A DNA stretch of 64,000 bases from Promethearchaeota archaeon. GTDB lineage: Archaea; Asgardarchaeota; Lokiarchaeia; Sigyniarchaeales; SOKP01. The notes below the pieces were generated by a model. It was not told where the DNA came from and made no database searches. It saw only the letters and a list, made by a program, of their open reading frames with translations. Position 1 is the first letter of the stretch. The number at the start of each line of letters is the position of its first letter. Where the stretch lies: positions 50,313 through 114,312 of the forward strand of contig JABXKD010000002.1 in assembly GCA_013375475.1 (NCBI GenBank), read 5' to 3'. Positions 26,359-26,970 of the stretch are shown piece after piece. The translations under genes and the position numbers were made by a program.

Positions 26359-26970
26359 TTAAAATTCAAGGAAGCCAGGGTCATCAAAGATATCTTCAAT
26401 TTTCTTTTCTTTCTTCATATCGCTTTCGTCGTGTTCTGTAAATAAAGATTCATCGTCAGTTTTAATTCCCTTTTCCAATTCTAGAGAATCTAATTGAAGT
26501 AATGCGTTTTTCTCTAGCCTTTTATATCCTTCGGCTTTCATTTTCCATTTATTTACTTCATCAATATTTACTTTATCTTCGTCTTCTAAGGCTTCAGCAG
26601 CTTTAGCTTTACAAATGTCAGTTAATATTGAATAAGATAAAGCTAATTCTCCCCATTCGTTCTTTTTTTTTAACTTTTCGACACGTTTTTCTAATCTTTG
26701 AAGTTCTTGATCAGCATAATGAATATCGATGAAATCTCCAAACGCATCAACAGGTTCTGATATCGAATTAACGAGTACTTCCTTTACTAAACCGCAATGA
26801 CCGCATTTTACGGTAGCAATTGCGCTCTTTCTAATATTTTCCACTTTTACCGATTTTTCACCGCAATCCATATTGAATGGGATATCCATTTAATTATTTG
26901 GGCAGGTGAAAATCTTAGGTACTCTCTTAACGCGTTTATAAGTTTGTTGTTTTCTTTTTCTTCTTCCCAT
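26359..26970 (-). CDS. elf1: Transcription elongation factor Elf1 with C-terminal extension; split by a 30-nt BHB-like intron (193 aa after splicing)
   Basis: Exon 1 MGRRKRKQQTYKRVKRVPKIFTCPN and exon 2 CGEKSVKV...VKCGHCG...EPVDAFGDFID give the Elf1 signature; GGTG SD upstream of ATG 26970. Confidence 0.88.
26866..26895 (-). other. Putative BHB-type mRNA intron in elf1 (30 nt, in-frame TAA)
   Basis: Exon-exon helix TTCACC(T)GC/GCGGTGAA, central CCAA/ATGG (one A.A mismatch), bulges ATA and ATT, inner hairpin ATT-A-AATGG/CCATT-C-AAT. Confidence 0.8.

Follow-up and report, generated by a model that had tools for sequence, protein, structure and literature searches.

A Promethearchaeota archaeon (Asgard archaea; assembly GCA_013375475.1) carries a gene for the elongation factor Elf1 (PF05129) that is cut, inside its first zinc-binding CxxC motif, by a 30-nucleotide (nt) insert containing a TAA stop codon. 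The gene lies on the minus strand of a 64,000-nt stretch of contig JABXKD010000002.1 (positions 50,313 to 114,312), which we call the window, and the insert occupies 26895-26866. Our analysis supports a model in which the insert represents a bulge-helix-bulge (BHB) intron in the pre-mRNA of single-copy elf1, with a predicted spliced form; we put the probability of this reading at about 0.88. A BHB-like intron at 26866-26895 had been proposed in an earlier note made from the window alone, and 40 homologous inserts, covariation, purifying selection and the single copy of the gene now bear that proposal out.

Translation from the minus-strand ATG at 26970 runs through a basic N-terminal tail for 25 codons, ending in Cys-Pro-Asn, and the insert's second codon in this frame is the TAA. 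The ATG at 26889 adjoins the TAA and opens a 176-amino-acid (aa) frame that reaches Cys-Gly eight codons on. The two open reading frames at the locus, one of 26 aa (26890..26970) and one of 176 aa that begins with the ATG adjoining the TAA (26359..26889), lie where the earlier note had placed the short unspliced product and the in-frame ATG behind it. The gene consists of the following parts.

26979..26982, minus strand: Shine-Dalgarno-like GGTG, last base 8 nt before the exon-1 ATG, with a presumed role in initiation
26896..26970, minus strand: exon 1, Elf1 codons 1-25, from the basic tail through Cys-Pro-Asn, with the first zinc-ribbon Cys
26866..26895, minus strand: predicted BHB intron, 30 nt; its second codon, read in the exon-1 frame, is TAA
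26359..26865, minus strand: exon 2, codons 26-193 and the stop

Exon 2 completes the first CxxC with its second Cys and also supplies the second CxxC, the remaining Elf1 domain and a C-terminal extension of ~115 aa. Taking out 26895-26866 fuses both pieces into CPNCG, the first zinc knuckle of Elf1, and the basic tail, CPNC and CGHC (a four-cysteine zinc ribbon) occur together in translations only once the insert is removed. The Pfam profile is divided in the same way, as positions 1-27 match the 26-aa piece (17.6 bits) and positions 28-76 match the 176-aa piece (37.1 bits; cut-off 29.8). When the stop is read through, the match extends over profile positions 1-76 of 79 with 47.8 bits (same cut-off); intronless orthologues score 68-72 bits. 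Removal at the predicted bonds would yield a 193-aa Elf1 with an intact CxxC...CxxC zinc ribbon, so the claim that loss of 30 nt joins the N-terminus to the rest of Elf1 holds. The interrupted gene gives the single PF05129 match above cut-off in the genome (3.92 Mb, 288 contigs).

The C-terminal extension (26359-26620, minus strand) has a charged, coiled-coil-like stretch followed by an acidic tail. It is seen in all orthologues of families f1 and f2 of this order, where Elf1 has a total length of 193-221 aa. In many other Asgard lineages the frame holding the Elf1 match is only ~77-134 aa, among the matches listed in a scan of the phylum.

We examined the minimum-energy fold of 76 nt around the site. 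An exon-exon helix (UUCACC/GGUGAA plus GC/GC with a bulged U) is followed by three bulged nucleotides (AUU) at the 3′ border, then by CCA paired with UGG and an A opposite an A, and the rest of the insert folds as a hairpin. Counting the A·A as the fourth position of the central helix gives the 5′ site a bulge of 3 nt as well (AUA), which adjoins the intron hairpin. The central helix joins the end of exon 1 to the end of the intron, with CCAA at 26898..26901 pairing with 26871-26868 at three of four positions, and the 3′ bulge adjoins the exon-exon helix. Both predicted cuts, between 26896 and 26895 and between 26866 and 26865, fall after the second bulge nucleotide. The fold therefore contains each element that the earlier note had drawn: the exon pairing (TTCACC/GGTGAA and GC/GC in DNA), the insert's own hairpin and the cuts after the second nucleotide of 3-nt bulges. 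Its elements are listed in transcript order.

26902..26914, minus strand: outer exon-exon helix h, 5′ strand; GAUUUUCACC, a bulged U, then GC
26898..26901, minus strand: central 4-base-pair helix H, 5′ strand; CCAA in the exon, made up of the Pro codon and the first base of the Asn codon
26895..26897, minus strand: 5′ bulge AUA, with the predicted cut after AU, between 26896 and 26895; same register in 40 of 40 interrupted genes
26872..26894, minus strand: intron hairpin h′; 9-position stem with one A·C mismatch, 5-nt loop
26868..26871, minus strand: central helix H, 3′ strand; AUGG, in the intron
26865..26867, minus strand: 3′ bulge AUU, with the predicted cut after AU, between 26866 and 26865
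26852..26864, minus strand: outer exon-exon helix h, 3′ strand; GC, then GGUGAAAAAUC

Inserts at the same place recur among relatives. Elf1 was found in 37 of 42 genomes of the genus (g1), uninterrupted in 21 and interrupted at exactly the same site in 16. The genus inserts are 30 nt (nine genomes, including the window's), 32 nt (five), 31 nt (one) or 28 nt (one). At the level of the family, where low-scoring Elf1 matches were fetched and inspected for inserts, 120 of 135 genomes have Elf1. Comparing elf1 across these genomes, as the earlier note had suggested, revealed that 40 of the 120 are interrupted at the same phase-0 site, after CPx: 16 of 37 in g1, 4 of 4 in g16, 1 of 9 in g21 and 19 of 49 in g22. 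The fetched copies do not include those of five g12 genomes, which have divergent uninterrupted Elf1, or of G220, G259 and G275, which are cut by contig ends. Many genomes yield a match to only positions 26-78 of PF05129 in profile scans.

Insert lengths over the 40 genomes are 31 nt (20 genomes), 30 nt (13), 32 nt (6) and 28 nt (1). With four lengths among them, and with most (27 of 40) not divisible by three, the inserts cannot be accounted for by read-through, a frameshift or a dead gene. A stop in the exon-1 frame is present in 39 of 40, mostly as the first or second codon, though intron sequences differ between genera. This early stop could be selected to end translation of unspliced RNA at once, or it may simply follow from the sequence of the bulge and stem. 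Among the matches listed in a 400-genome scan of the phylum (150 rows, family rows included, with 167 further matches unlisted), no interrupted copy was found outside the family; of five low scorers outside the family that we looked up, four (G187, G186, G180 and G181) have an uninterrupted gene, and in G326 a contig end truncates it.

A few genomes hold unusual Elf1 loci. Two in g22 encode a second, short, divergent and uninterrupted Elf1-like paralogue that has no basic N-terminal tail (L082, G247:C183; L083, G230:C41). One bin, G232, contains both an interrupted Elf1 (L080, C94) and an intact one (L198, C171); listed at 9% contamination, it may hold two strains. In family f5 of the same class, one open frame of 261-320 aa carries three tandem Elf1 zinc-ribbon matches, as at these loci.

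G180:C1:196-723: tandem Elf1 matches of family f5 (L087/L089)
G181:C64:11530-12057: tandem Elf1 matches of family f5 (L085/L090/L091)

Comparison of the 40 interrupted genes revealed that the BHB register fits every one, with two 3-nt bulges, a cut after the second nucleotide, the exon-exon helix and the intron hairpin. The first two outer pairs form in all 40, while the central helix has four of four pairs in 7 genomes, three in 32 and two in 1. Most copies would thus be classed as relaxed motifs, which agrees with the single central-helix mismatch that the earlier note had read as a relaxed motif in the window's copy. For covariation, we used 46 distinct sequences, comprising the family set and 16 intron-bearing metagenome contigs; outer pairs 1 and 2 are formed in all 46.

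When the 16 genus copies are aligned, the BHB structure pairs 91.3% of cells; sliding the 3′ partners by 1-3 columns lowers this to 35.5-54.8%. Pairing reaches 94% of cells in helix 1 (the outer exon-exon helix) and 91.9% in helix 3 (the intron hairpin), and four pairs have changed on both sides, three of them in helix 3. In four of five measures, none of 500 shuffles matched the observed value. The five 32-nt introns and the 28-nt intron are perfect motifs (CCAA/UUGG), while the 30- and 31-nt genus forms keep the A·A mismatch. The 28-nt intron belongs to G014, whose coding sequence (CDS) differs from that of its sister species G000 at 14 of 579 bases. Two single-base indels, one to either side of the structure, separate this intron from the 30-nt form, and it makes a perfect BHB. 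In G024, the Pro codon has changed silently from CCA to CCG, and the intron has the matching change of U to C.

This last correspondence recurs. In 42 of the 46 sequences the Pro codon's third base is paired with intron base j-4, which is fifth counting from the 3′ end of the intron and lies ~30 nt downstream of the codon; the pair is A-U in 35, G-C in 3 and U-A in 4, and none of 10000 shuffles reached the observed value. The exons on either side are also more complementary when interrupted: 9.62 of 10 positions on average over 47 distinct sequences, versus 7.47 of 10 over 36 intronless sequences, where the highest values come mostly from lineages of recent loss. We conclude that comparison with relatives, rather than any single fold, takes the predicted structure far beyond chance, and that the pattern over relatives is the one expected of a structure under selection.

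The reading frame was assessed in the same genus. Removing the insert gives a 193-aa frame with CPNCG in all 16 copies, the length found in most intronless genus orthologues, and intronless relatives have in their DNA the very exon junction that the predicted cuts leave. For the 16 intron-bearing genes, the ratio of nonsynonymous to synonymous substitution rates (dN/dS) is 0.056 overall, with dS near 1, and it is 0.029 in exon 1, 0.046 in the Elf1 domain and 0.080 in the C-terminal part. These values indicate that strong purifying selection acts on both exons, in a frame that arises only through removal of the insert; with the recurrence of the insert and its range of lengths, they show that it is neither an error nor the mark of a dead gene. 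An intact second elf1 with relaxed selection on this copy would have spoken for the latter, and neither was found, as the gene is single copy in the genome and dN/dS in the genus is 0.056.

The intron is old and occupies the same site in four genera of the family. Inner-helix sequences vary by genus, while the hairpin apex is alike, with a UGG...CCA stem over a short A/U-rich loop; the shared apex suggests a single old origin. On a tree of spliced coding sequences (116 rows, 38 with the intron), presence and absence require 18 changes, at least 13 of which are forced by well-supported branches. Several close sister pairs differ in the intron, among them G228/G224, G239/G235, G256/G266 and G212/G213, and in the genus tree the intronless G005 is nested in the 32-nt group. 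The insert is also missing from five metagenome contigs (2.3-16.7 kb) whose 35-nt flanks are identical; one of these contigs shares 94.3% CDS identity with an intron-bearing species. The trees are built from one short gene out of metagenome bins, and they leave out L010 in the genus (gene cut at 120 aa) and, in the family, L074 (at a contig start), L200 and L081 (a 213-nt CDS). Together, these results indicate that the intron has been lost precisely and often. The precision of the losses fixes the exon junction independently of any fold; precise and frequent loss also argues that the intron is dispensable. It is probably close to neutral rather than an essential switch.

Several observations weigh against the proposal that the insert is a spliced BHB intron. 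All compared genomes are metagenome bins, and G000 has a contamination of 6.41%. The fold of the window's copy alone is not beyond chance (z = -1.75; 10 of 200 shuffles were as stable), and this copy carries the A·A mismatch in its central helix. Over the 46 distinct sequences, central-helix position 4 is paired in only 23 and position 2 in 35, and the Pro-codon pairing is broken in the four g16 genomes, which are its four exceptions. The fifth measure on the genus alignment, the number of additional standard pair types, did not exceed the shuffles, 485 of 500 of which attained it. Kinship among the genomes means that the counts, the shuffles and a Mann-Whitney test overstate independence. Finally, six public sequencing runs were considered, three of which contain a small share of the stretch, all as assembled contigs only. 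In run X1, annotated as "RNA? probably DNA", one record covers 26776-26970 with the intron kept; X2, which is clearly RNA, stops at 26842, short of the intron, and no joint is present in the records of either run. We regard the RNA records as uninformative, as they say nothing either way on splicing.

Could the ribosome, rather than an RNA-processing enzyme, deal with the insert? In programmed translational bypassing, for which phage T4 gene 60 is the precedent, it would take off before the stop and land ~30 nt downstream, with no cutting of the RNA. The position of the stop, within the first two insert codons of most copies and beside a hairpin, would suit this mechanism, as would the repetition of the same five to six bases at both borders in most of g22 (18 of 19 copies allow five or six equivalent registers and the other allows three), so that take-off and landing codons would match. 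However, this repeat follows from two identical bulges, and in g1 the codon before the insert (AAU/AAC) differs from the codon before exon 2 (GAU/GAC/GAA). Moreover, bypassing predicts neither the covariation between CCN and the intron's 3′ end nor 3-nt bulges at a fixed distance nor the exon-exon helix, and we consider it very improbable. An equally poor candidate is a split gene, in which the 26-aa peptide and a protein started within the insert would both be made, as cooperating products or regulated alternatives. The earlier note had taken the ATG next to the TAA as a possible reinitiation switch, and this ATG is indeed in frame with exon 2, as is one in 14 of the 16 g1 introns. The idea fails on the wider set: such an ATG is found in only 16 of 40 introns, with 2 of 24 outside g1 (2 of 19 in g22), and any of ATG, GTG or TTG in only 20 of 40. 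The 28-nt intron has no ATG in frame, its own ATG being out of frame with exon 2; in g1 the intron ATG sits within the hairpin stem; and the first zinc-knuckle Cys would be left on a separate 26-aa peptide. An essential switch is further at odds with the many precise losses, as the family tree requires no fewer than 13 changes.

A dead or dying gene, in which a small insertion was never removed and Elf1 was lost or truncated, would account for the in-frame stop, for RNA records that hold no proof of removal and for the 15 of 135 family genomes in which Elf1 was not found. We give this explanation almost no weight. It is contradicted by purifying selection on both exons (dN/dS of 0.03-0.08 at a dS near 1), by the 193-aa frame kept after removal in 16 of 16 genus copies, by the persistence of the insert in 40 species of four genera with compensatory changes, and by the want of a second Elf1 copy that could take over. 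Lastly, the insert might be removed from RNA by other means, through a different endonuclease or self-cleavage, rather than by the splicing endonuclease EndA and the ligase RtcB. The central helix is imperfect in most copies and the part of EndA here is a prediction, both of which leave some room for this idea. Yet the geometry is exactly that of EndA substrates, with 3-nt bulges 4 base pairs apart and cuts after the second nucleotide, and the genome encodes two EndA paralogues and RtcB. Rfam has no match at the locus to suggest self-cleavage, and to our knowledge 30 nt is too short for any self-splicing intron. Nothing calls for a nuclease other than EndA, and removal by such means seems highly unlikely.

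A spliced BHB intron would work as follows. The elf1 transcript would fold locally, with 26914-26902 pairing with 26864-26852 in helix h, CCAA of exon 1 pairing with AUGG of the intron in central helix H (with the one A·A mismatch), and the remainder of the intron forming hairpin h′. Each strand would then carry one 3-nt bulge. EndA, a two-subunit splicing endonuclease, would cut after the second nucleotide of each bulge, between 26896 and 26895 and between 26866 and 26865, and RtcB would join the two exons. The mature mRNA would encode the 193-aa Elf1, while unspliced RNA would yield only the 26-aa peptide. EndA cleavage and RtcB joining are predicted from the geometry and from gene content, as two EndA paralogues (PF01974) are encoded in the genome, at C215:33041-33265 and C133:34125-34373, and RtcB in the window itself.

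14483..15790, minus strand: RtcB RNA ligase gene (PF01139, 560.7 bits; genome C211:64795-66102), predicted to join the exons in trans

The RtcB gene lies 11 kb from the interrupted Elf1 gene, on the same contig. According to Kaneta et al. (2018; PMC5829648), Asgard EndA is of the two-subunit type with a loop that broadens the substrate range. According to a preprint (bioRxiv 10.64898/2026.10.13.758758), 44 of 60 Asgard genomes have two EndA paralogues, and Asgard tRNA genes are heavily interrupted. A relaxed motif like the window's is what EndA of broad specificity reportedly accepts. In the present genome, aragorn found 29 tRNA genes and called introns in 14, the plausible calls being 10-77 nt long; a total of only 29 suggests that many interrupted tRNA genes were missed. 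Rfam matches three tRNA genes in the window.

496-568, minus strand: tRNA gene
1786-1876, plus strand: tRNA gene
3161-3245, plus strand: tRNA gene

Two of these span 91 and 85 nt, compared with 71 positions in the model, and probably hold introns.

We also searched for relatives of the intron within the genome. A search with its 23-nt core, allowing up to 4 mismatches, and blastn-short matched nothing but the intron itself, so it is not a repeat. At the locus, Rfam returned nothing but a chance match to a long noncoding RNA (E = 0.64, far under the gathering score). A scan of both strands of the 3.92-Mb genome for other split genes, requiring the BHB register with at least 10 of 12 pairs and an open reading frame restored by removal, gave no excess over controls. 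It returned 18104 candidates (14144 with a score of 10, 3673 with 11 and 287 with 12), while controls with the register displaced by one base gave 14415, 3693 and 325 or 14597, 3763 and 328 at the same scores. The scan is thus uninformative, indicating neither the presence nor the absence of further split genes.

The intron might be more than a tolerated relic. Only ~55 nt separate the start codon from the beginning of the motif's exon half, so that ribosomes engaged in translation would unwind this half, and the output of full-length Elf1 would then depend on a race of EndA and RtcB against translation. Were this so, the supply of an elongation factor would be tied to tRNA-splicing capacity, much as for HAC1/XBP1 in eukaryotes, and the near-universal stop in the first two intron codons would be a selected fail-safe. 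We think it unlikely that the Elf1 intron is a regulated, unconventional mRNA splice of this kind.

HAC1/XBP1 mRNA is the eukaryotic counterpart that comes to mind: in the cytoplasm, Ire1 cleaves it at stem-loops and a tRNA ligase or RtcB joins the ends, altering the frame or product. The proposed Elf1 intron resembles it as a small mRNA intron that would be cut by an endonuclease at stem-loop sites and joined by a tRNA ligase. It differs in the endonuclease and the motif and in that HAC1/XBP1 splicing is regulated, whereas Elf1 gives no sign of regulation. Asgard archaea are the nearest prokaryotic relatives of eukaryotes, and Elf1 is common to both.

If our reading is correct, Elf1 is the second gene family with a BHB mRNA intron, supported by 40 genomes with covariation, and the intron very probably adds to a known but very small class of archaeal protein-gene introns. 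There is a practical consequence for annotation. Gene calling based on open reading frames cannot yield full Elf1; it gives a 26-aa piece and a 176-aa piece that starts in the intron and has no first zinc ligand, and Elf1 can look degraded in profile scans, as only part of the profile is matched. The 40 variants, ranging from perfect to relaxed, and the many precise losses form a natural test set that bears on what Asgard splicing endonuclease accepts outside tRNA and on how such introns vanish. We found no publication on a BHB intron in Elf1, or on any Elf1 intron in Asgard archaea, in a search whose coverage excluded most subscription journals. By title and abstract, the papers that our searches found on Asgard and Lokiarchaeota introns concern tRNA, rRNA, group I and group II introns only, with none on Asgard protein genes.

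BHB introns of tRNA are described as abundant in Asgard archaea (bioRxiv 10.64898/2026.10.13.758758; Marck and Grosjean 2003 cited there). The Elf1 intron shares their motif, their predicted enzymes (EndA and RtcB) and a similar length. It differs in that its host is an mRNA, which offers no tRNA body to aid recognition and in which codons constrain the exon half of the motif. Since no similar intron sequence occurs elsewhere in the genome, nothing points to its having been copied from a tRNA intron. Among mRNAs, HVO_1309 of Haloferax volcanii has a BHB site, and Schwarz et al. (2020, PMC7714728) report that the archaeal splicing endonuclease accepts it as a substrate. Their study describes it as one additional mRNA substrate and counts cbf5 as the sole mRNA with a BHB known before that work.

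A BHB intron has been described in crenarchaeal pre-mRNA for the pseudouridine synthase Cbf5 (Watanabe 2002; Yoshinari 2006; Yokobori 2009, PMC2738675); by the account in PMC2738675, pre-mRNA splicing had as of 2009 been confirmed for no other gene. The same account describes hosts with a hetero-oligomeric EndA of broad specificity, gain and loss among relatives, and an intron size within the range of tRNA introns. The splicing of cbf5 has been confirmed experimentally, whereas that of Elf1 is predicted from comparative evidence. In the genome studied here, cbf5 itself is uninterrupted, with a 355-aa frame free of stops.

1-139, minus strand, running off the window start: cbf5/TruB_N, uninterrupted (genome C211:50110-50451)

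The Elf1 intron differs from that of cbf5 in its gene and in its lineage, Promethearchaeota (Asgard), and it lies 75 nt into the CDS, inside a zinc-binding CxxC. Nonetheless, cbf5 is the closest precedent. By the description in PMC2738675, the cbf5 intron is, like that of Elf1, short, often relaxed in motif, patchy in distribution and linked to a hetero-oligomeric EndA.

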